A stretch of DNA of 64,000 nucleotides, taken from IMG/VR virus record IMGVR_UViG_3300037423_001636, positions 141,169-205,168 of that record. One strand, 5' to 3'. This document shows, piece after piece, positions 6,556-38,110 of this stretch. A model generated the notes under the pieces. The model was not told the DNA's origin. It worked only from the letters and a program-made list of their open reading frames with translations, and made no database searches. This DNA is from a virus. Lineage: Duplodnaviria > Heunggongvirae > Uroviricota > Caudoviricetes. The position numbers and the translations under genes were made by a program. The first letter of the stretch is position 1; the number at the start of each line of letters is the position of its first letter.

Positions 6556-7419
6556 ATGTCCAGACCGTGGGAGATTCCATCCGGTAGAATTCTAGTCTTC
6601 GGAGATGTCCATCAGAGGCTTAACTGGGCCGACGTTGTGCTGGAGCATGAAAAGGGGAACTACGATCATATTGTATTTGGAGGCGACATAATCGATTCTC
6701 ACGATGCTCCCCCCGCAGTTTCCGGTGCCAGAGAGACAGCTCGCTGGTATGCGCGGCTGATAGAATCTCCGAATACAACGGTGCTGATGGGCAATCACGA
6801 TCTGCCGCAGTTCGAATCTCACTCTCATTCTCGCGCCCATCGTCACAAGCGCCCGCTTTTCAATGCTTGTTCCGGATTCACTCATTCCAAAGCAATTGAG
6901 TTCGCCAAGGAGATGACGCATGATCTTTGGCGCAAGGTCCGACTGTTCTGTGTGGCGAACGGATGGCTGCTCTCTCACGCGGGTATTCAGGAGAATAGCT
7001 GGCAGAACCATTTGGCAGCCGAGACAAATCTAGATCGGCTGTGGAACGAAGCGGACGAGGCACTGGAGGCAGCTCCGTTTAAGCCTCATAGACTTTTCGC
7101 GTGCGGATATAATCGTGGCGGCGACGCCAATTATGGAGGACCGCTGTGGCTCGATTGGGACACAGAATTTGAGGACGTTCTTCCGTATCCACAGATTGTA
7201 GGCCACACCCACAAACTAAACGCTCACCGCCGCATTGGTCGCTCTTGGTGCATAGACTCTGGAACCGGCTATGTCATTATAGCGCCAGACGGAACGGTCG
7301 AACACAAGAGGCTCTGGCGGGCGCGCGATTGGAATAAGGACGATGGTTACGTGTGGATTTCCGGAATACCCACAATCCGCGATGATACGGAACATGCTTT
7401 TCAACGAAAGAGGAATTGA
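6556..7419 (+). CDS. Metallophosphoesterase (lambda-PPase / Ser-Thr phosphatase-like)
   Basis: The motifs ILVFGDVHQ (DxH), HIVFGGDIIDSHD (GDxxDRG-like) and VLMGNHDL (GNHD/E) are present, with downstream GH motifs. Confidence 0.7.
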   Translation: MSRPWEIPSGRILVFGDVHQRLNWADVVLEHEKGNYDHIVFGGDIIDSHDAPPAVSGARETARWYARLIESPNTTVLMGNHDLPQFESHSHSRAHRHKRPLFNACSGFTHSKAIEFAKEMTHDLWRKVRLFCVANGWLLSHAGIQENSWQNHLAAETNLDRLWNEADEALEAAPFKPHRLFACGYNRGGDANYGGPLWLDWDTEFEDVLPYPQIVGHTHKLNAHRRIGRSWCIDSGTGYVIIAPDGTVEHKRLWRARDWNKDDGYVWISGIPTIRDDTEHAFQRKRN

Positions 7420-15654: not shown

Positions 15655-15745
15655 GGGTCGGTGCCTAGAGTAGCGATTAGCTCGGCCTTTTAAGCCGCCG
15701 CGGGTCACACCGCCATCGGGGGTGCGAGTCCCTCCCGACCCACCA
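15655..15745 (+). tRNA. tRNA-Leu(TAA), class II
   Basis: Perfect acceptor GGGTCGG/CCGACCC. Anticodon loop TTTTAAG. Long variable arm. T arm GGGGG-TGCGAGT-CCCTC. Encoded CCA. Confidence 0.6.
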
Positions 15746-15751
15746 ATTTAC

Positions 15752-15826
15752 GGCGTGTTCGTCAAGTAGTAAGACCGGAGCTTGCAAACCTCCTATACGC
15801 TGGTGCAAATCCAGCACGCGCCTCCA
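15752..15826 (+). tRNA. tRNA-Cys(GCA)
   Basis: Acceptor GGCGTGT/ACGCGCC. Anticodon loop TTGCAAA. T arm GCTGG-TGCAAAT-CCAGC. Encoded CCA. Confidence 0.5.
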
Positions 15827-15976
15827 CTCTCCCCTCTGGGCTCTGCGCTTCAGCAGGCGTCTGACCAGTATGCGGGCCGACAAGGCAAACCGCGAAGGAT
15901 GCGAGGAACCATCGTTGTTGGTGAGGCTCTAGAGCCGAACTGACTATAGCCCCGACGTATACTGGGGCAGAATTTC

Positions 15977-16059
15977 GGGGGATGGGAATGCTATAGTGTG
16001 TTCGCCTGTTTCGCAAACAGGATATTAACAGTCCGGGGCAGATCCGGAATCCTCCACCA
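15977..16059 (+). tRNA. tRNA-Ala(CGC)
   Basis: Acceptor GGGGGAT/ATCCTCC with a G3:U70 alanine identity pair. Anticodon arm CCTGT-TTCGCAA-ACAGG. T arm TCCGG-GGCAGAT-CCGGA. Encoded CCA. Confidence 0.6.
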
Positions 16060-16143
16060 TTTTAACACACTGTTCATAAGGCACTTCTGTGATTTGTAGG
16101 TGGGTTGCACACAACCTCCACCATATAGCGTGTAAACCTATGC

Positions 16144-17007
16144 GTGGCAAAAAGACCTACAGTAACATTGGTGTGCGCATATACTGGAGAGACATTCGAG
16201 AAAGATCGTCGAGAATACCATCGTCAGCTTCGTAATGGGGCCACTCACTTTTACAAGGACAGTAAAGCAGCTGCTTTGGCCAGCGCTGAGGCAAGACGAC
16301 TGAAGCCAGTAGATAGGATTTGTCCACATTGCGGAAACACTTTCGAGGTGATACCGAGACGCCGGGCGGCGACATTTTGTTCTTCTCGTTGCGCTGCCCA
16401 CTATGGGCATGATCAGCTTAAAGCGAATCCGGAGCGAATGCTTACATTTCAAGAAAATGCGTCTGCGGCAGGAAAGAAAGCGTGGGCCGCCGGAAAACAC
16501 GATAACGCCATTCATCGAAATGGGCGTCGTCGCGCAAAAATCGAATCGCGTGGTTGCGCGGTGTGTGGTGCTGGGTTCGAATGCAAAGACAACAGCAAGC
16601 GCAAAACCTGCGGCAAGCCAGAATGCAAAAGGGAGGCTACTGCTCGCGGAGTTAGAGCCAACCCCAATTGTGGTGGAGAAAGCAATTATAGACGCTACAG
16701 ATACAAAGACATTTTGTTTGATTCGGCGTGGGAGCTTGAGATCGCTCAGTGGATGGACGGGGTTGGTATGCAATGGATTCGAGACAAAAAGATCTGGTTT
16801 CGCTGGACAGATCAAAATGGCACGATTAGACGTTATCACCCAGACTTCTACTTGCCCAGTTTTAATATTTATCTAGATCCCAAGAACAAGTTTCTACTGG
16901 AACGAGACGCTTTCAAGCTAGAGGCTGTGAAACGTGAGCATGGCATCAATCTCGTTTGGGGGAGTAGGGAAGAGATTTTAGTCTTCCTTCAGAATCTATT
17001 GGGGTAG
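16144..17007 (+). CDS. Putative homing endonuclease (N-terminal zinc ribbons + C-terminal PD-(D/E)xK-like nuclease domain) inserted in the tRNA array
   Basis: 287 aa. There are several CxxC pairs (CPHCG, CAVCG, CGKPEC). The C-terminus reads DSAWELEIAQWMD...YHPDFYLPSFNIYLDPKNK...EHGINLVW, the restriction-endonuclease-like pattern of phage homing endonucleases. It is the only ORF inside the tRNA array. Confidence 0.5.
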   Translation: MAKRPTVTLVCAYTGETFEKDRREYHRQLRNGATHFYKDSKAAALASAEARRLKPVDRICPHCGNTFEVIPRRRAATFCSSRCAAHYGHDQLKANPERMLTFQENASAAGKKAWAAGKHDNAIHRNGRRRAKIESRGCAVCGAGFECKDNSKRKTCGKPECKREATARGVRANPNCGGESNYRRYRYKDILFDSAWELEIAQWMDGVGMQWIRDKKIWFRWTDQNGTIRRYHPDFYLPSFNIYLDPKNKFLLERDAFKLEAVKREHGINLVWGSREEILVFLQNLLG

Positions 17008-17089
17008 TGGCACGACAAGTAAGGCACCGCGTTTGCAATGCGTAAGAGCGTAAGCTCGAATAGGGGCGCGATACCCCTCTACTCCACCA
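17001..17089 (+). tRNA. Class II tRNA-like unit; anticodon unresolved (loop TTTGCAA, possibly TGC)
   Basis: Acceptor GGGGTAG/CTACTCC. T arm AGGGG-CGCGATA-CCCCT. A variable-arm hairpin GAGC-GTAA-GCTC is present. Encoded CCA. The D and anticodon arms are imperfect. Confidence 0.4.
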
Positions 17090-17222
17090 TCTTGGGTATC
17101 CAATCCCGTGGCTAGAGGCCACCGTTTGGGCCGCGATAGCGTCCACCAATTTGGCTAGCGACCTTCGGGTGTCTAGCTCCCGTTTGAGTCGGGCGTTCCG
17201 CGGTGGCGATAAACCCCTTTGT

Positions 17223-17300
17223 GTGAGCGTGGGCCAGATAGCAGGCCGCCATCCTTCCAAGCTGGTTTTTACGCGGATGCGAGTTCCGCCGCTCACTCCA
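17223..17300 (+). tRNA. tRNA-Gly(TCC)
   Basis: Perfect acceptor GTGAGCG/CGCTCAC. D stem GGCC/GGCC. Anticodon loop CTTCCAA. T arm GCGGA-TGCGAGT-TCCGC. Encoded CCA. Confidence 0.5.
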
Positions 17301-17431
17301 CTTTCCCGTCCTGAGAACAAAGGCCCATTGGGACTAGCTAGCATGATTCTGGTGGGGTCAGCAAAGGCTATGGACCCGCGGTCCATATCGGATGGCTCAG
17401 CCGGATTGCAACGGCACGGGAATTCACTTTT

Positions 17432-17518
17432 GGGTTAGTCACATAGCAGCAATTGTAGCGCACTGTAAATGCGCCGAGCTAACGCTCTCCGAAGGTGCGA
17501 GTCCTTCCTAGCCCACCA
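17432..17518 (+). tRNA. tRNA-Tyr(GTA), class II
   Basis: Acceptor GGGTTAG/CTAGCCC. Anticodon arm GCGCA-CTGTAAA-TGCGC. Long variable arm. T arm GAAGG-TGCGAGT-CCTTC. Encoded CCA. Confidence 0.6.
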
Positions 17519-17523
17519 TTTTC

Positions 17524-17598
17524 GGCCCTGTCATCCAACAGTCAGGATGTCCGCTTGATAGGCGGGTCATATCGGTGCGAATCCGTTCGGGGCTACCA
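17524..17598 (+). tRNA. tRNA-Ile(GAT)
   Basis: Acceptor GGCCCTG/CGGGGCT. D stem ATCC/GGAT with loop AACAGTCA. Anticodon arm TCCGC-TTGATAG-GCGGG. T loop TGCGAAT. Encoded CCA. Confidence 0.6.
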
Positions 17599-17602
17599 TT
17601 TT

Positions 17603-17673
17603 AGGTCCGTGATGAAGCATCAACAGAGCCTCCAAAACTCTGGACGAGGGAGCGTTACCTTCCGGATCTGCCA
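17603..17673 (+). tRNA. tRNA-like unit with an apparent 9-nt anticodon loop (CCTCCAAAA)
   Basis: Acceptor AGGTCCG/CGGATCT. T arm GAGGG-AGCGTTA-CCTTC. Encoded CCA. The anticodon arm CAGAG-CCTCCAAAA-CTCTG has a 9-nt loop. Confidence 0.35.
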
Positions 17674-17814
17674 TTTTATTGCTGGGTCAATTAACCGATC
17701 TATTCCAACCTAGGTATCGGTTAGTTCGATACCGAAAGGTGTCTACAGCAGCCAATTCCTCGTCAATAAACCGAGAACGGAAGGTAAGACAGCGCCGGGT
17801 CAAATGCTGCATAC

Positions 17815-17887
17815 GGAGTCAGACCTAGTGGTCAGCGTCGCCTGAAGAGCGAAGCAGAGTGGGATGCGATCTCCCCGGGCTCCACCA
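17815..17887 (+). tRNA. tRNA-Phe(GAA)
   Basis: Acceptor GGAGTCA/GGGCTCC (6 of 7 positions paired). Anticodon loop CTGAAGA. T loop TGCGATC. Encoded CCA. Confidence 0.55.
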
Positions 17888-17993
17888 TTTTCTATTGCAG
17901 CCACAAGCCGTATGACGCTAAAGGTCCTCATAAGTCCTGCTTCGAAAGGAGCTATGCCCGGTGAAACTCCGCGGGGTCTGCAACCATTTTTAT

Positions 17994-18068
17994 ACAGACG
18001 TGGGTCATTAGCTGATCGCTCGGCTTGGGACCGAGATTAAGTGAGTGCGATTCTCACCGTCTGTACCA
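17994..18068 (+). tRNA. tRNA-Pro(TGG)
   Basis: Perfect acceptor ACAGACG/CGTCTGT. D stem GGTC/GATC. Anticodon arm CTCGG-CTTGGGA-CCGAG. T arm GTGAG-TGCGATT-CTCAC. Encoded CCA. Confidence 0.65.
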
Positions 18069-18168
18069 TTTTGATCCAACGCATGGAGGGGTGAAACTCT
18101 GTCGAGCTACTCCCCGGTTGTGCAGATAGCCGTTCGACAGCTGGCTATCATTTGGGTCAATTTATTTT

Positions 18169-18242
18169 GGGCTATTGTTGAATGAGTATCATAGGAATCT
18201 GTCTAATTCCAATAGCGAGTGCGAGTCTCGCATAGCCCGCCA
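18169..18242 (+). tRNA. tRNA-Asp(GTC)
   Basis: Perfect acceptor GGGCTAT/ATAGCCC. Anticodon arm GGAAT-CTGTCTA-ATTCC. T arm GCGAG-TGCGAGT-CTCGC. Encoded CCA. Confidence 0.6.
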
Positions 18243-18527
18243 TTTTAGCCGCACGCATTCTCTAAGATCCTTGGGGTCTTTCGGTCTCATGGGAGACGTG
18301 TTGTTGAACCGTCAGTTCAACTGATGGACTTGACGGTCCATGGCCTCCCTTTCTCTCGTGGCATAGCTGAAGCGGTACCGGTCCGCCCAGCTTCTGGCTT
18401 GCGCTGACGCCGCCCGCTTTGCGGCTTAGGGTGGCAGCCGAATCCGCCGTGCTCCTGTTGTAGGCGGGGATTAGCTCCTGCCGGTCAGGCAACGCGAATC
18501 GCGGTAGTCACGAGAGGATCTTTTTAC

Positions 18528-18603
18528 GGACGCTTGACCCAGCAGCTACGGTACCTGCCCTACACGCAGAGGTTCGGGGGTGCGAGTCCCTCAGCGTCCA
18601 CCA
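18528..18603 (+). tRNA. tRNA-Val(TAC)
   Basis: Perfect acceptor GGACGCT/AGCGTCC. Anticodon loop CCTACAC (position 33 is C). T arm GGGGG-TGCGAGT-CCCTC. Encoded CCA. Confidence 0.55.
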
Positions 18604-18610
18604 TTTTTAT

Positions 18611-18688
18611 TCCCGTCGAGGAGTCTAGCGACACCGGCGCACTGTTAATGCGTGTTCGAGCATGGAGCGTAACCATGGGCGGGAGCCA
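18611..18688 (+). tRNA. tRNA-Asn(GTT)
   Basis: Acceptor TCCCGTC/GGCGGGA. Anticodon arm GCGCA-CTGTTAA-TGCGT. T arm CATGG-AGCGTAA-CCATG. Encoded CCA. Confidence 0.55.
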
Positions 18689-18692
18689 TTTC

Positions 18693-18767
18693 GGATCGTT
18701 CGTCTATCAGTTAGGACAGAAGCCCGACATGCTTCAGAGAACCGTGCAACTCGGTTACGATCCACCA
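18693..18767 (+). tRNA. tRNA-Val(GAC)
   Basis: Perfect acceptor GGATCGT/ACGATCC. Anticodon arm GAAGC-CCGACAT-GCTTC. T arm AACCG-TGCAACT-CGGTT. Encoded CCA. Confidence 0.6.
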
Positions 18768-18771
18768 TTTT

Positions 18772-18846
18772 CGGGATATGGCCTAACAGTAGGGCGCTAG
18801 TCTGGGGGACTAGAGTGCGCCGGGGCAGCACCGGCTATCCCGACCA
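18772..18846 (+). tRNA. tRNA-Pro(GGG)
   Basis: Perfect acceptor CGGGATA/TATCCCG. Anticodon arm CTAGT-CTGGGGG-ACTAG. T arm GCCGG-GGCAGCA-CCGGC. D loop AACAGTA. Encoded CCA. Confidence 0.6.
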
Positions 18847-18852
18847 TTTTAA

Positions 18853-18928
18853 CGGTGTGTATTGTCAAGGGCAGACGGCCTTGTTCGGAACGAGGAGGTT
18901 GGGATATCGTAATTCCCCACGCCGACCA
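18853..18928 (+). tRNA. tRNA-Pro(CGG), with a canonical-type elbow
   Basis: Acceptor CGGTGTG/CACGCCG. Anticodon arm CCTTG-TTCGGAA-CGAGG. T loop ATCGTAA (T55 C56). D loop AAGGGCA (G-rich). Encoded CCA. Confidence 0.6.
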
Positions 18929-18932
18929 TTTT

Positions 18933-19046
18933 GGCTCTAAAGTTCAGCGCAGTCGTCACGAGGTTGATCGCTGGTTGATGCGCGCGAGAAGAACGCCCAC
19001 CCTGATCGAGTGGGAGGCACGGGTGAAATACCCGTTGGAGCCGCCA
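18933..19046 (+). tRNA. Over-long (114-nt) tRNA-like unit; internal arms unresolved
   Basis: Acceptor GGCTCTA/TGGAGCC with an encoded CCA. T arm ACGGG-TGAAATA-CCCGT. The body is ~35 nt longer than a class II tRNA, so it may be an insertion or two fused units. Confidence 0.3.
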
Positions 19047-19052
19047 ATTTAC

Positions 19053-19126
19053 GGACCCATAATGTAGAGTAGCATTCACGGCTTTGAACCGTTGCAGTCT
19101 AGGTGCAAGTCCTAGTGGGTCTGCCA
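19053..19126 (+). tRNA. tRNA-Gln(TTG)
   Basis: Acceptor GGACCCA/TGGGTCT. Anticodon loop CTTTGAA. T arm CTAGG-TGCAAGT-CCTAG. Encoded CCA. Confidence 0.55.
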
Positions 19127-19132
19127 TTTTGT

Positions 19133-19206
19133 TGGCTCCTAGTGTAATAGCAGCACGACACTCTCTGAAAGTGTTTGTGTGGGTGCGACTCCCACGGAGC
19201 CTGCCA
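19133..19206 (+). tRNA. tRNA-Gln(CTG)
   Basis: Acceptor TGGCTCC/GGAGCCT (position 1 is unpaired). Anticodon arm ACACT-CTCTGAA-AGTGT. T arm GTGGG-TGCGACT-CCCAC. Encoded CCA. Confidence 0.5.
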
Positions 19207-19211
19207 ATTTC

Positions 19212-19287
19212 GGGGATGTAGCTCAGCCAGTAGAGCGCCTGCATGGCATGCAGTAGGTCGTGGGAGCGAAGCCCATCATCTCCACCA
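19212..19287 (+). tRNA. tRNA-Ala(GGC)
   Basis: Acceptor GGGGATG/CATCTCC with G3:U70. D arm GCTC-AGCCAGTA-GAGC. Anticodon arm CCTGC-ATGGCAT-GCAGG. T loop AGCGAAG. Encoded CCA. Confidence 0.65.
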
Positions 19288-19317
19288 ATTTCAGTTGCAG
19301 ACGTTCGCTGTTCGTCC

Positions 19318-19430
19318 ATATCCGGACACAATGTCCGGATAAATGTCCGGATAGAGGAAGTTCGCTCGTGCTCCACTCGTAGCGGCAGAGTCTGCCATGT
19401 CTGGATATGTCCGGATTATGGCCGGATTCG
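19318..19430. promoter_or_regulatory. Palindrome/iteron cluster on the core TGTCCGGAT (operator- or origin-like)
   Basis: A perfect palindrome ATCCGGACA-CA-ATGTCCGGAT lies at about 19319-19341. Direct repeats follow: AAATGTCCGGATAG (19343), ATGTCTGGAT (19398), ATGTCCGGATT (19408) and GGCCGGATT (19421). The cluster sits in a ~340-nt gap without tRNAs. Confidence 0.5.
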
Positions 19431-19440
19431 CTAACGACCG

Positions 19441-19620
19441 CCCATCCGCACTAACCCGAATAAGCTGAGAGCGTGAGTGGCTCTTTGAAGCATGGTTGGG
19501 GCAGTCACCGGGTAAAGCCGTGACCATCGTTGCGACCGTCGATCGCCCGGTGAGAGAAATGAACGTCACTTAGGGAGACGATACCTGAGTTACAGAAGGG
19601 CGGCTATCGCGACTGAATAT
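19441..19620 (+). ncRNA. Candidate structured non-coding RNA (not tRNA-shaped) inside the array
   Basis: A 5' CCGCCC pairs with a 3' GGGCGG about 165 nt apart. Internal hairpins include GAGAGC-GTGAGTG-GCTCTT and TCACCGGG...CCCGGTGA. The unit ends ...ACTGAATATTTT with no CCA. Confidence 0.3.
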
Positions 19621-19625
19621 TTTAC

Positions 19626-19704
19626 GGTGCTCAAGCTACAGTAGACGGGCAACTCCCTCTTAAGGAGACCATTCGTGAGGCTGCAACTGCCTCGGGCACC
19701 ACCA
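19626..19704 (+). tRNA. tRNA-Lys(CTT)
   Basis: Acceptor GGTGCTC/GGGCACC. Anticodon loop CTCTTAA. T arm GAGGC-TGCAACT-GCCTC. Encoded CCA. Confidence 0.45.
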
Positions 19705-19709
19705 ATTTT

Positions 19710-19794
19710 GCGGTTCATACAAACCAAAAGGGGCACAGGTCATATGAGTGCTGAATATGGTTGAGTTTGGGTGAAATTCCCGGACGCCGCACCA
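19710..19794 (+). tRNA. tRNA-like unit (85 nt); anticodon unresolved
   Basis: The T arm TTGGG-TGAAATT-CCCGG and the acceptor 3' strand ACGCCGC with CCA are clear. The 5' strand GCGGTTC pairs at only 5 of 7 positions. Confidence 0.3.
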
Positions 19795-20104
19795 ATTTAG
19801 AGTGAGAATCAACGCATCCCAATGGGAGCAGCTAACGAGCTTAGCACTCACTCTATCCATCTTGTGTGACGGAATAACGTTTATCGTTAGGCGTAACGTG
19901 ATCGGTTGCCGAAAAGGTGACTGACGCAGGATAGACTGAACAGGAAAGGCGGATTGTCGTATGAGGTTGGCCAACCTCAGCGGGAATCGCTCTAAGGTAT
20001 TATCTCTGATAACGACCTTGGTTTTGGGGCGACGGCCCCTTCTAGCCTAAGCTCCTATTCGGTTGAAGCCTTGGGAGTAGTCAGGATTCTCCCCACATAT
20101 TTGC

Positions 20105-20192
20105 AGGAGGGTGGCTCGACAAGTAAGGCAACGGTTTCATAAGCCGTGGGGAGAAATCCCTTATACGGGGGCAGTACCCGTTCCTCCTACCA
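20105..20192 (+). tRNA. Class II tRNA with apparent anticodon CAT (loop TTCATAA)
   Basis: Acceptor AGGAGGG/TCCTCCT. The D region TGGCTCGACAAGTAAGGCA is shared with the unit at 17001. Anticodon arm ACGGT-TTCATAA-GCCGT. Variable-arm hairpin GGGA-GAAA-TCCC. T arm ACGGG-GGCAGTA-CCCGT. Encoded CCA. Confidence 0.45.
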
Positions 20193-20198
20193 ATTTAC

Positions 20199-20273
20199 GC
20201 CGCCAACTCATAGAAAGCGATGAACTGACTTGGTAAGTCAGGCAGCAGGGCGCAAGTCCCTGTGGTGGCTCCA
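20199..20273 (+). tRNA. tRNA-Thr(GGT)
   Basis: Acceptor GCCGCCA/TGGTGGC. D stem TCAT/ATGA. Anticodon arm CTGAC-TTGGTAA-GTCAG. T arm CAGGG-CGCAAGT-CCCTG. Encoded CCA. Confidence 0.65.
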
Positions 20274-20346
20274 TTTTGATCCTGTACACAGGATCATACA
20301 GCGGTTGACAGTCCCCGCTGGGAGTGGTTAGAGTCCACAGGACCGA

Positions 20347-20429
20347 GCCGATGTGGTGGAACGTATACACAACAGGTCGAGAGCCTGTCGCCGCAAGGAT
20401 TGGGGGTGCGAGTCCCTCCATCGGCACCA
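20347..20429 (+). tRNA. tRNA-Leu(GAG), class II
   Basis: Perfect acceptor GCCGATG/CATCGGC. Anticodon arm ACAGG-TCGAGAG-CCTGT. 13-nt variable arm. T arm GGGGG-TGCGAGT-CCCTC. Encoded CCA. Confidence 0.6.
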
Positions 20430-20435
20430 ATTTAT

Positions 20436-20520
20436 GGGCAGTTGGCGTAACAAGCAGCCGCGCGAGTCTTAGAAGCTCGTGGAGAAATCCGTATGGGTGC
20501 AATTCCCTTACTGCCTACCA
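20436..20520 (+). tRNA. tRNA-Leu(TAG), class II
   Basis: Acceptor GGGCAGT/ACTGCCT. Anticodon arm CGAGT-CTTAGAA-GCTCG. 13-nt variable arm. T loop TGCAATT. Encoded CCA. Confidence 0.6.
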
Positions 20521-20526
20521 ATTTAT

Positions 20527-20611
20527 GCGCGTATGGTGGAACTACTATACACAGCAGTTTCAGGAACTGCCGACTTCGGTCTTGGGGGTGGAAATCCCTC
20601 TACGCGCACCA
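20527..20611 (+). tRNA. tRNA-Leu(CAG), class II
   Basis: Perfect acceptor GCGCGTA/TACGCGC. Anticodon arm GCAGT-TTCAGGA-ACTGC. 13-nt variable arm. T arm GGGGG-TGGAAAT-CCCTC. Encoded CCA. Confidence 0.65.
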
Positions 20612-20745
20612 ATTTCCCCGTAGCTGAGAGAGATGCAAGCGCCATATCGAAACGTCGCAAGATGGATTCCGCAAGGACGGTATGGGACGATGTGCAAACA
20701 TCAGAACAGAGTGGAACTCACACTCTCGGGGAAAAATCTTTTCAC

Positions 20746-20823
20746 GGCCCGTTAGTATTACGTTCGCTAGATCGCTGCCCTTTCAAGGCAGAGGAGACGG
20801 AGCATCACCGTCACGGGCTGCCA
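20746..20823 (+). tRNA. tRNA-Glu(TTC)
   Basis: Acceptor GGCCCGT/ACGGGCT. Anticodon arm CTGCC-CTTTCAA-GGCAG. T arm GACGG-AGCATCA-CCGTC. Encoded CCA. The D region is oversized. Confidence 0.5.
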
Positions 20824-20828
20824 ATTTT

Positions 20829-20903
20829 CCCCTCGTCTTCTATACAGTAGGAAAACAGATTCTCAATCTGAAAAAGCGGATGCAAGTTCCGCCGAGGGGA
20901 CCA
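20829..20903 (+). tRNA. tRNA-Glu(CTC)
   Basis: Perfect acceptor CCCCTCG/CGAGGGG. D loop TATACAGTAG. Anticodon loop TTCTCAA. T arm GCGGA-TGCAAGT-TCCGC. Encoded CCA. Confidence 0.6.
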
Positions 20904-20907
20904 ATTT

Positions 20908-20961
20908 GACTCCACGAAAACTATCAAGTTAGCGAGGGTGAGAATCCCTTTGGAGTCGCCA
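20908..20961 (+). ncRNA. Mini tRNA-like unit (54 nt): acceptor stem + T arm + CCA, with the D and anticodon arms replaced by a short hairpin
   Basis: Perfect acceptor GACTCCA/TGGAGTC. Discriminator G and an encoded CCA. T arm GAGGG-TGAGAAT-CCCTT. The central 19 nt fold only as AACT-ATCA-AGTT. Confidence 0.4.
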
Positions 20962-20967
20962 ATTTAC

Positions 20968-21057
20968 CGGCTCGTGCTTGGAATGTATACAGCGGGGTCT
21001 TAAAAACCTTGGCTCCTTCAATGGAGATTGTGGGTGCGAGTCCCATCGGGCCGACCA
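20968..21057 (+). tRNA. Class II tRNA, Leu-like (anticodon loop CTTAAAA, TAA)
   Basis: Acceptor CGGCTCG/CGGGCCG. Anticodon stem GGGGT/ACCTT (two G-U pairs). 19-nt variable region. T arm GTGGG-TGCGAGT-CCCAT. Encoded CCA. Confidence 0.4.
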
Positions 21058-21216
21058 ATTTGAGTGTAGTGTAACAGTGAGCACGTTGGTGAGAGCAGGT
21101 TTCCTCAATCGTGACACCGCTGGCTCATAACTGGCAAGGACATGATTTGATAACTGTAAGCCTTGAATACATGCCAAAGGTCCGGTGCAATTCCGGCGCT
21201 CAACCTAAATTTTCAT

Positions 21217-21300
21217 GCCGTTGTGGTGAAATAGTAAACACAGTAGTCTCAAAAACTACCGACGAAAGTCTTGTGGGCGCGACTCCCACCTTCGGCACCA
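21217..21300 (+). tRNA. tRNA-Leu(CAA), class II; acceptor imperfect
   Basis: Anticodon arm GTAGT-CTCAAAA-ACTAC. 13-nt variable arm. T arm GTGGG-CGCGACT-CCCAC. Encoded CCA. Acceptor GCCGTTG/CTTCGGC has two U-U mismatches. Confidence 0.45.
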
Positions 21301-21468
21301 ATTTCACGGTCATTGAGGGCGACGAAATCAACCCATCCGAGGCAAAGTCGAGCGACCTGAGCCGTGAATCCATTATGGTCCCGTGTCGCAGCAGACCCGA
21401 GAGATTTATACCCTCTAGCGCGCCAGATTAGCGCCGTGATCAGGGGCAGCACCTGACGGGACTACCAA

Positions 21469-21570
21469 TTTCTCTGTTCCCGAAGGAGTGCATTCCAAAG
21501 TAGCCCATGCACGGGGCGGTGAGGTTCTATCGCGATCATACAGAGCTTTTGACCCGCGCGAACAGAGATT
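21469..21570 (+). ncRNA. About 100-nt structured RNA closed by a 9-bp terminal helix (first of the Ro60-upstream structured-RNA series)
   Basis: A 5' TCTCTGTTC pairs with a 3' GAACAGAGA about 85 nt away, followed by TTCTTTTT. Internal GTGCAT/ATGCAC and other hairpins are present. There is no CCA end. Confidence 0.35.
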
Positions 21571-21576
21571 CTTTTT

Positions 21577-21653
21577 GGCTCCTACTCCTAGATAGCGAGG
21601 ACCTCGCCTCGTAAGCGAGAGCTGAGGAGACTGCGATGTCTCAGGAGCCTCCA
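21577..21653 (+). tRNA. tRNA-Thr(CGT)
   Basis: Perfect acceptor GGCTCCT/AGGAGCC. D stem TCC/GGA. Anticodon arm CTCGC-CTCGTAA-GCGAG. T stem GAGAC/GTCTC with a 6-nt loop TGCGAT. Encoded CCA. Confidence 0.55.
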
Positions 21654-21656
21654 CTT

Positions 21657-22340
21657 TAGTCAGATAGCGAAACGCATCGGTTACTTCCGCCAACCCGTTG
21701 GGCTCACGCCCGACAAAAAGCCCGTGAACATGGAACCACGGCGACCGTGCAAATTATTCTTCTGACTTTCTACTTTGCTGTGGCGATAGGAAGCACTTAC
21801 TTCTTCGTTATTCAAATGAAACTGCCTCGCAAGGGGCGTCTGTGCATCCGCCTGTTCCCAGCAATCTATTTCCTGATGTCGTTAGAGTAAACGGTTACTT
21901 CATATTGGAATGATCGGTCTGCAAGGACCATACCCGTTCTCGCCTGTTACTCAGGAAAACTATTTTTCATTTTGCCGTAGCGAAGATCGCGGTTACTTCA
22001 TTGCAAACGAAACAACACCGCTATCGTTTATTCTCGGCAATCCACTTTCCTCAGTAGCGCAGATTGGGAGTTCTTCTATTATCACAAAAGGCCCGGTCGT
22101 CTATTCTCTGAGGGATCAATTTGGAGTGGCGTTAGAAAAGGAGTTCTTCGTATCATAAACGAGTAGTGAGAGTTCGAACCTCTCGGGGTCCACTATTACG
22201 GGCCTTTAGTGTAATGGCAGCACACTTTGGGGCGCAAGCCCCGCTCGCCTTTTCGCCTGTTCCCTCCAATCTTTTTCACGGTAGCGTAGAATACGATTTC
22301 TTCGTGAGTGCAACACCCCACCAGCCCCGCCATTACTTTT
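21657..22340 (+). ncRNA. Series of about six ~100-110-nt structured RNA modules immediately upstream of the Ro60 gene (candidate Y RNA / YrlA-like paralogues)
   Basis: Each unit repeats a hairpin of the form GCGxAGAxCGC followed by GTTACTTC or GTTCTTCGT (at about 21665, 21790, 21885, 21975, 22045, 22135 and 22280). Several units are closed by long-range 5'/3' pairing (for example AGTCAGA at 21657 with TCTGACT at 21762). The last unit has a canonical T arm GAGAG-TTCGAAC-CTCTC (22168-22184) and a CAT anticodon-like loop (22147-22163) but does not close into a tRNA acceptor stem. Confidence 0.4.
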
Positions 22341-22431
22341 TATGGGGCTGCTAGCGTATTCGCTAATTCTCCGTGATATTCTCTATACAATTCCCCACGG
22401 GCAATCAAGCTTTGTGGTGGCGCTAATAAAC

Positions 22432-23850
22432 ATGAAGACCAATAAAAAGTCAGTATCGACATTCAAGACCGCCCCGGCCGCCAAGCGTGTTGCCGGTGGT
22501 TCCGGCGCTGTCGCCGACACGATTACTGCGGAGCAAACTCTCCGTCGTTGCGTGCTAACCAATCTCCTGTGGGAAGATTGTGCGTATGAATCCGGAGTGG
22601 AGATCGCACAAAAAATCCGCGAGACCATTCCGCAGGTTCCCGCCGATCGCGTCGCAGCAATCGCCATCGAAGCGCGCGGCCAGCAAAAGCTCCGCCACGT
22701 TCCGCTGCTCCTCGTTCGCGAGATGGCGCGGTTGGATACACACCGCCATGTCGTGGCTGACACTCTTCCCCAGATCATTCAGCGGGCCGATGAGCTTGCT
22801 GAGTTTTGCGCAATCTGGCAGAAGGACGACAAAAAGCCGTTGTCCAAGACCCTATCAGCGCAAGCCAAGAAGGGTCTGGCCCGCGCCTTCGTCAAGTTCG
22901 ACGAATATGCTCTTGCGAAGTACAATCGCGACAACGCGGTCAAGCTGCGCGATGTGCTGTTCCTTTGCCACGCCAAGCCGGAAAACAAGGCTCAAGAGAA
23001 GCTGTTCAAGCGGCTGATCAACGATGAGCTGAAGACCCCGGACACGTGGGAAGTTGAGCTGTCGGCCTCCACCGACAAGAAGGCTTCATGGACTCGTCTC
23101 CTCGAAGAGGCCAAGCTTGGCGCTCTAGCCTTCATCCGCAACCTGCGCAATCTGACTCAGGCTGGCGTCGAGAAGAATCTCATCCGAGACTACTTCAAGA
23201 CGGTCAACCCGGAACGCGTTCTTCCGTTCAACTTCTTGTCCGCAGTTCGTGAGGCTCCAGAATACACCGCTCAGCTTGAGACCCTCATGCTGAAGTGTCT
23301 GGCAACCTTCCCGAAGCTGAAGGGCAAGACGGTGTTTATTGTTGACGTGTCGGGCTCGATGACCAGTGGGTTAGCCGGCAAGTCGTCCATGAACCGACTC
23401 GACGCAGCAGCGGCACTGACTGCGCTGATGCGGGAAGTCTGCGAAGAGCCAGTTATCTACGCTACGGCTGGATGTGACGGTTCTCGCAAACACGAGACGA
23501 AGGAAGTCCCAGCGGCCCGCGGTTTCGCGCTGATGGAAGAGATTCGCAAGATGCAGCACTCCCTCGGGGGTGGTGGTATCTTCCTCTGCCAGAGCACGAA
23601 GTTCGTTAAGGAGCTGGAGAAGACGGCTGATCGGCTTATTGTCCTGAACGACAGCCAAGATTGTGACTATGTGAAGGACCCGAATCAGGCGGCAGCGTTT
23701 GGTCGGTTCAACTATCTCATGGACGTTTCTTGCCACACGAAGGGTGTAGCCTACAAAGCTTTCACTCACATCGACGGCTGGAGCGAAAGTGTGATTAACT
23801 TCGTATATGAGACGGAGCGCATGGCGCTTCAATCGCGGCAGAAGAAGTAG
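22432..23850 (+). CDS. rsr: Ro60 / Rsr orthologue (TROVE domain + C-terminal vWA domain)
   Basis: The N-terminal TROVE-like region reads ...RRCVLTNLLWEDCAYESG...HVPLLLVREMAR.... The C-terminal vWA/MIDAS reads KTVFIVDVSGSMTSG. The architecture matches Ro60. The start was moved from the six-frame ORF (22342) to the ATG at 22432 because the extension overlaps an RNA hairpin. Confidence 0.75.
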   Translation: MKTNKKSVSTFKTAPAAKRVAGGSGAVADTITAEQTLRRCVLTNLLWEDCAYESGVEIAQKIRETIPQVPADRVAAIAIEARGQQKLRHVPLLLVREMARLDTHRHVVADTLPQIIQRADELAEFCAIWQKDDKKPLSKTLSAQAKKGLARAFVKFDEYALAKYNRDNAVKLRDVLFLCHAKPENKAQEKLFKRLINDELKTPDTWEVELSASTDKKASWTRLLEEAKLGALAFIRNLRNLTQAGVEKNLIRDYFKTVNPERVLPFNFLSAVREAPEYTAQLETLMLKCLATFPKLKGKTVFIVDVSGSMTSGLAGKSSMNRLDAAAALTALMREVCEEPVIYATAGCDGSRKHETKEVPAARGFALMEEIRKMQHSLGGGGIFLCQSTKFVKELEKTADRLIVLNDSQDCDYVKDPNQAAAFGRFNYLMDVSCHTKGVAYKAFTHIDGWSESVINFVYETERMALQSRQKK

Positions 23851-24700
23851 CCTTCTGTATAGCAGCATACGCTTCCTCCTCGCTCGGAAAGTAGCCCACA
23901 AAAGCTCTTCCTAGCCGGGTTGGAAGCTGTGCTTTCCATGGGTCCCGAGTGCGCGCCTTCACTCGGGAAACCCCTTCAAATCTAGAGCTGAGCTTTAGCG
24001 CTTTGTCTCGAATCGTCATATAGGCGGCTTGCTTGCGAGGCAGAGCGAGATCGGTTCCAGAGCCCCAAATGTAGTCTCCCAGAGCATATACGGGCCGACG
24101 CCCGTTGACTCGGAAGACACTCCCTTTCCCTCGTTCGTTCGTTGTGATGTCGATTCGATATTCGACGCTGAGTCGTTTACAGAGATCGCTCAGAAAGGAC
24201 CAATCCTGATCGGCTGGTCCCGCAATCTGGATCTCATGAGTGCCAAATCGCGGGTCAACACATACGCATCCATCTCCATCAATCAATCCCAGATACCAGT
24301 AGCACTGTAGATGTGACGGGATGGTGTCTAGTATCGCCCGTGGAGAACTCGACTTAGAACAGTAGCCAAGAGCGCTCAGATGTTCGACGAGATAGTGGTT
24401 GGTTGTCGTAATCACCCACGCATTTTTCCACCCCTCATTTCGAGAGGGTTTAGAGTAGCATCCCCACCGCCCGGTGCGCAGCATAATGGGTCTGAAGTGT
24501 TCAACGTCTGGCGATGTCGTGGATAGGACTACGCTTTGTGTTCTATGTGTGTTTCGGATGTGCCCATCGGCCCAAAGCAGGCCGAGGATATAGGCGTGAA
24601 CAGGCTCTGTCACGTGAATGAATGGCTGTGGATTCACAGCGTATTGGTCGAACGGCTTGAGCCGGCGTTTGACTGGTCTGGGGATGGTATTGGTCTGCAT
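23795..24700 (-). CDS. LAGLIDADG homing endonuclease (two LAGLIDADG motifs, AP2-like C-terminus)
   Basis: Minus strand. The motifs are YILGLLWADGHI and YWYLGLIDGDGCV. An AP2-like DNA-binding tail GYFPSEEEAYAA follows. The gene is free-standing between the Ro60 gene and further tRNAs. Confidence 0.8.
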   Translation of the reverse strand: MQTNTIPRPVKRRLKPFDQYAVNPQPFIHVTEPVHAYILGLLWADGHIRNTHRTQSVVLSTTSPDVEHFRPIMLRTGRWGCYSKPSRNEGWKNAWVITTTNHYLVEHLSALGYCSKSSSPRAILDTIPSHLQCYWYLGLIDGDGCVCVDPRFGTHEIQIAGPADQDWSFLSDLCKRLSVEYRIDITTNERGKGSVFRVNGRRPVYALGDYIWGSGTDLALPRKQAAYMTIRDKALKLSSRFEGVSRVKARTRDPWKAQLPTRLGRAFVGYFPSEEEAYAAIQKATSSAAIEAPCAPSHIRS

Positions 24701-24753
24701 ACAGGATTGCGACTGGATTTACACGCATTCCGAGCAGAGTTTTATTGATTTTC

Positions 24754-24825
24754 GCCGATTGCTTCAGCAAGCCCGCGAGTTTTGTAAACTTGAGGAAGAG
24801 AGGGCAGCACTCTCAGTCGGCTCCA
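24754..24825 (+). tRNA. tRNA-Thr(TGT)
   Basis: Acceptor GCCGATT/AGTCGGC. Anticodon arm CGAGT-TTTGTAA-ACTTG. T arm GAGAG-GGCAGCA-CTCTC. Encoded CCA. The D region is short. Confidence 0.45.
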
Positions 24826-24831
24826 TTCTAT

Positions 24832-24920
24832 GGTGGTAGAGGCAGAAGTAACTCAAAGCACCGCCCTGTGAAGGCGGGTCCGCAAGGACATAGCGAGTGT
24901 GAGACTCGTCTACCACCCCA
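24832..24920 (+). tRNA. tRNA-His-like (GTG) with G-1 and a C73 discriminator, atypical body (long variable hairpin, weak D arm)
   Basis: Acceptor GTGGTAG/CTACCAC with an extra 5' G at position -1 and a C discriminator (the His identity set). Anticodon arm CCGCC-CTGTGAA-GGCGG. Variable hairpin GTCC-GCAA-GGAC. T arm GCGAG-TGTGAGA-CTCGT. Encoded CCA. Confidence 0.4.
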
Positions 24921-24926
24921 ATTTAT

Positions 24927-25001
24927 GGGCCTATAGTTCAATAGACAGAACCTCAGTTTGCGGAACTGACGATCCCAGTGCGAGTCTGGGTGGGCCTACC
25001 A
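24927..25001 (+). tRNA. tRNA-Arg(GCG)
   Basis: Acceptor GGGCCTA/TGGGCCT. Anticodon arm TCAGT-TTGCGGA-ACTGA. T arm CCCAG-TGCGAGT-CTGGG. Encoded CCA. Confidence 0.5.
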
Positions 25002-25029
25002 TTCTACGCTTGACTCCGGCCGCTAGGCT

Positions 25030-36781: not shown

Positions 36782-38110
36782 ATGCCACGCGCATGGACAG
36801 TAACTGACCTACTTTTTGGTGACAGCGGAAAAGGAACGCTCACCGAAGCGTTGGTCCGTAGGTATAAGGTCCCGCTTGTGGTTAGGTATTCTGGCGGCCC
36901 GCAGTGCGGCCATAACGTGGTGCTGGAAAACGGTACTCACCACGTCTTCAGCCAATTCGGCGCTGGAACCCTAGCGGGCGCTCGCACTCTACTCACCAAA
37001 CACGTCCTCATCGATCCGGTTCGCCTGATCAATGAGGGCGATGTGTTGGAGAAGAAGGGTGTGTCAGATCCGTTCGGCCGTGTGATGATAGACACTCAGT
37101 GTCTCGTCATCACGCCTTTCCACCGAGCTGTAAACCGACTGAAAGAGCTGTCTCGTGGTGCCGCCCGGCACGGGAGCTGTGGAGTGGGCGTGGGGGAGAC
37201 CGCGGCTTATGCTCTCAAACATCCTGACACGGCGCTGCGAGTGGAAGATCTCTTGTTTCATAGAAAGACTAGAGAGAAGCTTGAGCAGATTTCCAAGGAC
37301 TGTGGGGAGGAGATTGTCCAGTTTTGCGGGGGAGCGATGCCTCCCGAAGGCGCGGCCGAATGGGGGGTTTTTACCAGCCCCGACACCATCGACGCGTATC
37401 TCAATCGCTACCGCACGTTCTGCGAATCTGGAGTTATATTCGTGTCTACTAAGACCGCGCTAAACCGCATTCGCACTCAGGACACTGTGTGGGAAGGCGC
37501 GCAAGGTGTGCTGCTAGATGAGTGGGTAGGATTCCACCCGTTCACAACTTGGTCCACAGTCACTTTACAACACGCCATCGAACACCTCGCGCTAGCCGGC
37601 GTTTCGCGTGACGATATCACGAATATCGGCGTCCTGCGCTGCTATGGCCACCGCCACGGTGCCGGCCCATTCCCCACGGAAAACGAGAGCCTCCGTCCTA
37701 TTCTCGACGACAAATACAATCCAGAGAATTTGTGGCAGGGACAGTTTAGAGTTGGCTGGTTTGACGCGGTGATGGCGGACTACGGGAAACGAGTAGCCGG
37801 GCCGATAGACCAGCTTGCGCTCACCCACATAGATAGATTGGCTAGCCGGGACAAGTGGCTATTGGCTACAGGATATCCCGGCGGCGAGATCCTACCGCCA
37901 CATCCAGAGGACTTCACAGCACGAGAACATCTGACAAACGATCTAATGAAGCTGCGTTCAGACGACTTGACCGTGGAGAACGTGGTCAGCTCGCGGGTGC
38001 CAGCAATTATCTCAGACTATCTTGATCTCCCGGTAACTGTCACGTCCAGTGGGCCGACATATGCCGACAAGCAGTTCTCGCAGACTCTTGTAGAATCAAT
38101 ATCTGCATAG
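36782..38110 (+). CDS. Adenylosuccinate synthetase homologue (PurA family; candidate PurZ of the 2-aminoadenine pathway)
   Basis: 442 aa. P-loop LLFGDSGKGT (PurA GDEGKGK). GGPQCGHN (PurA GGHNAGH). VWEGAQGVLLDEW (PurA FEGAQGTLLDID). An identical GAGPFPTE. VGWFD (PurA TGWLD). Confidence 0.75.
   Translation: MPRAWTVTDLLFGDSGKGTLTEALVRRYKVPLVVRYSGGPQCGHNVVLENGTHHVFSQFGAGTLAGARTLLTKHVLIDPVRLINEGDVLEKKGVSDPFGRVMIDTQCLVITPFHRAVNRLKELSRGAARHGSCGVGVGETAAYALKHPDTALRVEDLLFHRKTREKLEQISKDCGEEIVQFCGGAMPPEGAAEWGVFTSPDTIDAYLNRYRTFCESGVIFVSTKTALNRIRTQDTVWEGAQGVLLDEWVGFHPFTTWSTVTLQHAIEHLALAGVSRDDITNIGVLRCYGHRHGAGPFPTENESLRPILDDKYNPENLWQGQFRVGWFDAVMADYGKRVAGPIDQLALTHIDRLASRDKWLLATGYPGGEILPPHPEDFTAREHLTNDLMKLRSDDLTVENVVSSRVPAIISDYLDLPVTVTSSGPTYADKQFSQTLVESISA

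Follow-up and report, generated by a model that had tools for sequence, protein, structure and literature searches.

A recurrent 35-bp three-repeat element in a phage tRNA island as a candidate docking site for a winged-helix protein of host restriction-modification loci

The window, meaning the full 64-kb stretch of DNA analysed here, comes from a large uncultured phage in which nearly all genes lie on the plus strand. Its replication genes include an exonuclease, a DnaB-like helicase and a DnaE-like polymerase, and a tRNA island, delineated with ARAGORN and Rfam, occupies 15.6-26.5 kb. HNH-type and LAGLIDADG-type homing-endonuclease-like genes are dispersed in the island (16144-17007, 23795-24700 on the minus strand, and 27820-28497), the LAGLIDADG gene being among the few minus-strand genes of the window. 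The island also contains a TROVE/Ro60-like protein (PF05731, 1e-17) and an RNA ligase (22342-23850 and 25030-26079), a pairing that suggests an RNA-repair or quality-control module; a Y RNA (YrlA) near the TROVE/Ro60-like gene was not found by Rfam. Further along, at 36782-38110, the window encodes a homologue of PurZ-type adenylosuccinate synthetase (phrog_1211, 2e-68), and the phage may therefore swap adenine for 2-aminoadenine. Such a replacement, if true, would also alter how a protein reads the A:T pairs in the repeat spacers described below. No close relative of the window is present among GenBank phages, and a synteny search based on the TROVE protein returned only relatives that are 28-53% identical (L036-L038), all of them lacking the motif.

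In the tRNA and tRNA-like units of the island (15743-26251, plus strand), the terminal CCA is encoded and ATTT comes directly after it. The combined word CCAATTT occurs 24 times in the window against 8.4 expected, with 19 occurrences inside the island, and at several positions (e.g. 17146, 19044, 19792, 20821, 20959, 21465, 24918 and 26245) it trails stretches called by neither ARAGORN nor Rfam. The island probably holds further divergent tRNA-like genes and a common 3' processing signal.

The repeat cluster under study lies in a gap between two such units. On the left, the gap is bounded by an Ala-like tRNA at 19212-19284 (plus strand), which is detected by Rfam only, with 52.3 bits, matches phage tRNA-Ala genes by BLAST, and is directly followed by CCAATTT at 19285-19291. 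On the right stands a degenerate tRNA-Lys(CUU)-like unit at 19626-19704 (plus strand), with a weak D-arm, a 4-bp anticodon stem and a CCA end followed by ATTT (CCAATTT at 19702-19708). ARAGORN calls this unit only at a lowered threshold (-ps85), and Rfam gives no match to 19626-19704 even at E<=10. Because of this unit the gap is shorter than it appears, with a true extent of about 19288-19625. An earlier note on this DNA had described it as the only long tRNA-free gap of the array, a description that does not hold, as other stretches are also free of called tRNAs, e.g. about 17600-17990 and 18243-18527. Small open reading frames that overlap the cluster (plus strand 19243-19434; minus strand 19291-19569 and 18849-19376) match no PHROG family, one of them runs antisense to three tRNAs, and all were treated as spurious. 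Just downstream of the gap, 19839-20103 weakly resembles the manA RNA motif (RF01745), scoring 24.7 bits (E = 0.005) where the gathering score is 55.2.

Within the gap, six TGTCCGGAT-type sites occupy 19320-19427. The first, ATCCGGACA at 19320-19328, is an exact copy of TGTCCGGAT on the minus strand and hence the inverted copy, whereas two exact plus-strand copies of TGTCCGGAT follow at 19332-19340 and 19344-19352. The remaining three are TGTCTGGAT at 19398-19406 (one mismatch), an exact TGTCCGGAT at 19408-19416, and TGGCCGGAT at 19419-19427 (one mismatch). The first three sites form a canonical three-repeat unit of 35 bp at 19319-19353, with the layout TATCCGGACA-caa-TGTCCGGAT-aaa-TGTCCGGATA, in which one inverted and two direct copies are held in a 12-bp register. 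A featureless spacer of 43 bp (19354-19396) follows, with no similarity to any fetched locus by BLAST and no promoter-like or terminator-like match. Beyond it lies a second, degenerate unit at 19397-19427, ATGTCTGGAT-ATGTCCGGAT-t-ATGGCCGGAT, in which one exact copy and two copies with one mismatch are packed at 10-11 bp and the inverted copy is absent. The second unit departs from the canonical layout in having direct copies only, at 10-11 bp spacing.

The repeat sites that the earlier note reported at 19318-19430 are present where it placed them. Its perfect 23-bp palindrome, on the other hand, is really an inverted repeat whose 9-bp arms flank an asymmetric spacer of 3 nt, CAA; counting the flanking T/A, the arms are 10 bp and the whole is 23 bp. 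Exact copies of TGTCCGGAT number four in the 64 kb against 0.60 expected, a count reached in only 1 of 100 shuffles, and all four lie within 97 bp, with zero exact copies in the remaining 63.9 kb. When up to one mismatch is allowed, the whole-window count of 19 is at chance level (16.2 expected). The signal is therefore one of local clustering, not of genome-wide frequency. The earlier note had named a random genome-wide frequency of the motif as evidence against its reading; since the signal consists of local clustering and recurrence across genomes, the genome-wide frequency is not decisive. The cluster in the phage tRNA array is real and non-random. No sign was found of the degraded homing-endonuclease target remnant that had been offered as an alternative.

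The location of the cluster within a transcribed tRNA operon raises the possibility that the element acts as RNA, its hairpin and alternative pairings in the pre-tRNA transcript serving as a signal for processing, stability or termination. A 10-bp hairpin is the predicted fold of the unit (plus strand z = -2.5, minus strand z = -3.2), and z reaches -3.95 for the gap as a whole. This folding signal is, however, explained by the repeats pairing with each other, and the rest of the gap is unstructured (19481-19630, z = +0.84). The third, direct copy of the unit is conserved without a pairing partner, the hairpin is followed by AAAUGUCCGG instead of a U-tract, and Rfam finds nothing in the gap. 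Together with the variable orientation of the element described further below, these observations make a role at the RNA level quite improbable. Several specific RNA identities were also tried and rejected. A tmRNA was considered from 'GATTC GCT AAC GAC' at 19425-19438, which resembles the E. coli resume region, and from the CCA end at 19702; ARAGORN finds none at default or lowered thresholds and only noise at -ps70, Rfam is negative at E<=10, and the CCA end belongs to the separate tRNA-Lys-like unit. A Y RNA that might partner the nearby Ro60/TROVE protein and a group I intron were likewise considered for the gap, and Rfam detects neither at E<=10. A single large structured RNA over the gap was set aside on the z-scores given above, and an intrinsic terminator on the missing U-tract and an empty terminator scan of the gap. 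No sigma-70 promoter was found in the gap either.

Replication-origin iterons for a phage initiator, which the earlier note had also proposed, are a further reading of the array. Direct repeats together with an inverted copy of one word recall the arrangement of Rep iterons and operators, and replication genes lie 7-19 kb upstream, with the DnaB-like and DnaE-like genes at 1.8-12.6 kb; no initiator was recognised within the 64 kb. Against an origin, the gap has a GC content of 53.6% and no AT-rich stretch, the lowest nearby 40-nt window (at 19739) still having 37.5% GC. The cumulative GC skew climbs smoothly through 19 kb with no turn at 19.3 kb, and bacterial copies of the element lie between genes of chromosomal restriction-modification loci. 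We consider an origin very improbable.

The element is not confined to this phage. A first scan of IMG/VR with the palindrome returned seven unrelated contigs, most of which carry a third copy of the word 12 bp away. A simple direct-repeat scan for TGTCCGGAT-N3-TGTCCGGAT gave a mixed yield of coding tandem repeats, an integrase-adjacent pair in locus L026 and true elements, and was replaced by a three-copy family pattern, TCCGGACA-N3-TGTCCGGA-N4-TGTCC. This pattern matches 7 viral, 110 metagenome and 29 GTDB-genome stretches, and 111 independent segments with the same layout remain after dereplication at 80%. Their consensus reads tA-TCCGGACA-caA-TGTCCGGAT-t..-TGTCCGGATA, and window 19319-19353 agrees with it at every conserved position. 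The positions of the third copy that the pattern leaves free are nevertheless conserved (G.91, G.81, A.78, T.88, A.62), while the flanks of the 111 segments are random. The GTDB matches are metagenome-assembled genomes of Acidobacteriota, Planctomycetota, Verrucomicrobiota, Proteobacteria, Clostridia, Desulfobacterota, Actinomycetota and others, so that the element is found in viral contigs, metagenomes and metagenome-assembled genomes of more than 10 phyla. One of the seven contigs from the palindrome scan, L004, is at 6654-6688 identical to window 19319-19353 at 34 of 35 positions within unrelated flanks. BLAST similarity between the window gap and every fetched locus is confined to 19319-19355, which marks the element as a discrete unit.

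Each unit of the family repeats one 8-10-bp word in a 12-bp register, with two direct copies, one inverted copy and AT-rich spacers between them. Direct copies range in number from 1 to 3 per element, as in iteron-like sites, and the words found in units include TCCGGACA, TCCCGCCA, TCCTGCCA, TCGCGACA, TCCCGACA and TCGCGCCA. No full-length match to the 35-mer exists in GenBank phages or PLSDB plasmids. A literature search by sequence and by domain names, in which subscription journals may be missed, found nothing on the element, its one pertinent result being the Schlafen paper PMC13056530 discussed below, and the 35-bp three-repeat family is apparently undescribed so far.

Larger arrangements of units were observed in several loci. 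In L079 (6790-7120), L057 (1800-2100) and L148 (2840-3090), four to six units with different words stand in a row, 45-90 bp apart, within one intergenic region; such multi-word arrays could reflect cross-talk between paralogous binders or something else. In L072 (1911-2035), L101, L087, L117 and L140, whole units together with spacers of ~27 bp are tandemly duplicated with an exact 62-bp period, and L072 holds three unit copies with identical spacers. Separately, a direct pair of TGTCCGGAT and a distant inverted copy are present in L026 (11855-11960), where a tyrosine integrase gene has its 3' end about 400 bp away; these repeats may represent arm-type attP sites, or else a further copy of the element.

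A compact unit with unrelated flanks at every locus could also be a functionless passenger, either recombined from host defence-locus DNA or a tiny mobile, REP-like repeat. tRNA islands are hot spots of mobile DNA, LAGLIDADG and HNH genes lie nearby, and the arrays with different words look like BIME clusters. The window nevertheless holds a single cluster in 64 kb with no multi-copy spread, the flank profile shows no evident target-site duplication, and no transposase was found nearby. At least 15 independent viral lineages, spanning three word classes, have retained the three-copy unit intact, and the same word occurs across more than 10 phyla, unlike species-specific REPs. A passenger is improbable on this evidence, and an identity as REP/BIME or MITE repeats was rejected on the single cluster in 64 kb, the spread of the word over more than 10 phyla and the missing transposase.

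In bacteria the element has a recurrent neighbour. Directly upstream of it, in 55 of 147 loci, lies a gene designated gene A, and among the gene A reading frames scored, 52 of 57 are in the orientation of the element and 5 are antisense. The ~500-aa product of gene A combines a RibD-like cytidine-deaminase domain with a GHKL HATPase_c_4 domain, and its C-terminal winged helix ends in ...DDRTARRHLNRFVELGLVRKTGSGPSTEYEVI. In an AlphaFold model this winged helix is predicted confidently (pLDDT about 90), and Foldseek also matches the protein to 3LMM, the structural-genomics protein DIP2311, which has no assigned function. Upstream, gene A loci carry hsdM/hsdS, and the gene downstream of the element is radC, hsdR, or type III res or mod. 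One to six units in a single orientation take up the space between the two genes and stop 10-60 nt short of the following start codon, the first beginning 20-100 nt past the gene A stop codon. Two units at a 62-bp period are common, and the usual layout downstream of gene A consists of two tandem units of which the gene-A-proximal one is often degenerate. In the window the unit starts are 78 bp apart, versus the ~62-bp period of bacterial tandems, and the second unit is degenerate and all direct.

Homologues of gene A number more than 3,100 at E<=1e-10. As an independent test, the genomic contexts of eleven homologues picked blind to the DNA motif were inspected, and 10 of the 11 lie in restriction-modification loci, the exception being L179; L183 adjoins primase genes. 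All five homologues in this blind sample that carry an ARR helix have TCCGGACA-type units that start 20-100 nt after their stop codon, in restriction-modification loci, while the non-ARR homologues have other words nearest to them.

The word in the element and the predicted recognition helix of gene A vary together. The 8-mer shifts with two residues (positions 4-5) of the helix; in the AlphaFold model the varying residues, 471-472, lie early in the third helix (467-479). ARR helices occur with TCCGGACA in 41 of 42 loci, and other helices with other words in 15 of 16. By class, the nearest word is CCGGACA for helix xxARRxL (41/42 loci), TCGCGACA for RKAQR[HQ] (6/6), TCCCGACA for RKAQR[IVM]LKKL (3/3), words of the form ..GCCA for RTALNHL (3/3), and TCCTGCCA for RTAMNHL (2/2), whereas the single RTAQRHL locus (1/1) has TCCGGACA. 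The code is thus not one-to-one, since RTAQRHL also occurs with TCCGGACA. Fisher's test on a provisional table of 41/1 versus 1/11, which predates the resolution of four more non-ARR helices, gives p = 1.5e-9 for loci that are not phylogenetically independent. All three copies in both tandem units change together. Although the presence of TCCGGACA had been the selection criterion for most of the non-ARR loci, the nearest unit in them has another word. Physical linkage alone could yield part of the covariation, and shared descent may inflate it. The up to six different words in one intergenic region of L079 are hard to explain by a single adjacent binder. As the word tracks helix residues 4-5 and gene A adjoins the element, we infer that the units are the cognate DNA sites of the gene A winged helix. 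The earlier note's view of the cluster as an operator-type array for an oligomeric DNA-binding protein is strengthened by the 35-bp layout in 111 independent loci with random flanks and by the covariation of word and recognition helix in bacteria.

Known systems share parts of this arrangement. C-boxes, such as those of C.PvuII and C.AhdI, are repeated operators in restriction-modification loci that stand just upstream of the restriction gene, are read by a helix-turn-helix protein encoded in the locus, and fall into several specificity classes. The 35-bp element shares with them the short repeated sites in restriction-modification loci, the position just upstream of a restriction gene, a putative helix-turn-helix reader from the same locus, and several specificity classes. 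C-boxes, however, consist of two adjacent palindromes upstream of the C gene itself and are bound by a small Xre-type protein, whereas the 35-bp element has two direct and one inverted copy, lies downstream of a 500-aa deaminase-GHKL-winged-helix gene in type I, type III and ISP loci, and has copies in phages as well. An identity as a C-box operator was rejected because the repeat architecture differs and no small Xre-type C gene is adjacent in the window or the bacterial loci.

Iteron plasmids offer a second parallel. In pPS10, RepA reads one word present as direct and inverted repeats through a winged helix, and the number of direct copies is variable in such plasmids; the 35-bp element is like Rep sites in using the same word in direct and inverted orientation with a variable direct-copy number. 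Iterons are about 20 bp long and stand at the origin beside an AT-rich region and the rep gene, while the 35-bp element has no AT-rich region, no rep gene recognised alongside it within the 64 kb, and no skew switch. The FRT site of the yeast 2-micron Flp system, in which a single element occurs twice in direct and once in inverted orientation, is identical in outline. FRT has 13-bp elements, an 8-bp crossover spacer and a need for a tyrosine recombinase; the 35-bp element, in contrast, has a 3-nt spacer and no linked recombinase, except for the integrase-adjacent pair in L026, which lacks the canonical inverted copy.

In phages, the element is found repeatedly in or at the edge of tRNA arrays, namely in that of the window and in at least four others, those of L004, L040, L131/L139 and L201. 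L004, L040 and L131/L139 carry the TCCGGACA element, and L201 carries an element of the TCGCGACA class. The L004 element sits inside an array of 20 tRNAs of its own. Across viral contigs other word classes are present as well, TCGCGACA in 12 stretches and TCCCGCCA in 2. The orientation of the element relative to the tRNAs varies between phages and is inverted in L040 and L131/L139, which fits binding at the DNA level and argues against an RNA or directional role. A comparison of L040 and L131 for presence and absence of the element involves tRNAs too divergent for inferring an insertion. Neither gene A nor a relative of its winged helix was found in the 64-kb window by hmmsearch, in the phage-like loci, or in IMG/VR by pattern and tblastn searches. 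The phage copies are orphan sites without an adjacent gene A, and the phage-like loci share no gene family beside the element.

These phage copies could instead form an operator for a regulator encoded elsewhere in the phage's own genome, which would switch part of the tRNA operon. The anatomy of the element is operator-like, it recurs in five phage tRNA arrays, and the 64 kb that could be searched belong to a probably larger genome. In L004, moreover, the array abuts a promoter-like site, TTGACT-N17-19-TATTAT at 6620-6655 on the minus strand, which stands directly after the array and points at tRNA-Arg(ACG). L004 is, however, the only locus with a promoter-like site beside the element, and the array in the window has none nearby. 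The orientation relative to the tRNAs is not constant, the phage-like loci share no neighbouring gene family, and the cognate winged-helix relative is missing from the window, the phage-like loci and IMG/VR alike; unrelated phages would each need a regulator of the same 8-bp specificity. An operator for the phage's own regulator is on balance unlikely, although gating of tRNA-operon transcription by the array, as the earlier note suggested, is possible.

We favour, with moderate confidence and from sequence comparison, a reading in which the cluster is a protein-binding DNA array, neither an RNA gene nor an origin, and the phage copy is most likely a docking site for a host gene-A-type protein. 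The binder is probably supplied by the host, since the window encodes no such protein and searches of IMG/VR found none either. On this model, a gene A-class dimer would sit on the inverted pair, with further subunits on the direct copies. The window array would represent an orphan ARR-class site with the TCCGGACA word, composed of a canonical unit and a degenerate second unit, on which an ARR-class winged-helix protein, probably from a host restriction-modification locus, would dock on phage DNA in the tRNA island. Three candidate outcomes are conceivable: the array may act as a decoy that sequesters a defence effector, as a roadblock or operator within the tRNA operon, or as a handle by which the defence finds phage DNA.

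Phage tRNA arrays are thought to counter tRNA-targeting immunity. In PMC13056530, a C-terminal GHKL (HATPase_c_4) and HTH module is described as the commonest fusion partner of bacterial Schlafen tRNases, and the Schlafen-HisKinase-HTH proteins as tRNA-cleaving defence effectors whose C-terminal modules sense phage cues. Gene A resembles the Schlafen-HisKinase-HTH proteins in having the same C-terminal GHKL (HATPase_c_4) and HTH module, and differs in carrying a RibD-like deaminase in place of the Schlafen nuclease. In light of this kinship the position within tRNA arrays is suggestive, but no more than that. Tentatively, then, phages may plant double-stranded DNA copies of a defence-protein operator in their tRNA arrays, as a decoy or docking pad that would sequester or redirect the effector while replacement tRNAs are made; in the mirror image, the defence would home on tRNA islands through the motif. 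We hold this broader proposal to be speculative and rather unlikely as it stands.

Solitary CRISPR-repeat RNA anti-CRISPRs provide an experimentally shown case of phage-borne RNA decoys of host immunity. The phage element compares with them, as an analogy only, in being a candidate phage-borne nucleic-acid ligand of a host defence protein; it differs in that double-stranded DNA would take the place of the RNA, in a decoy role that is hypothetical.

If the favoured reading is right, a family of more than 3,100 deaminase-GHKL-winged-helix proteins, distributed across phyla in type I, type III and ISP restriction-modification loci, gains a predicted DNA ligand, along with a simple recognition code in which two helix residues are set against two to three bases. 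Since the sites occupy the promoter or 5' region of the genes hsdR, radC and mod, restriction genes may be subject to an additional layer of regulation. If a defence protein does have a decoy or target at the DNA level within a phage tRNA array, this would be a new kind of phage-host interface; in either version of the proposal, a defence family and the tRNA counter-defence of phages would meet on DNA through a sequence code. Should the phage copies prove neutral, the three-repeat family and the protein linked to it would still provide a useful rule for the annotation of metagenomes.
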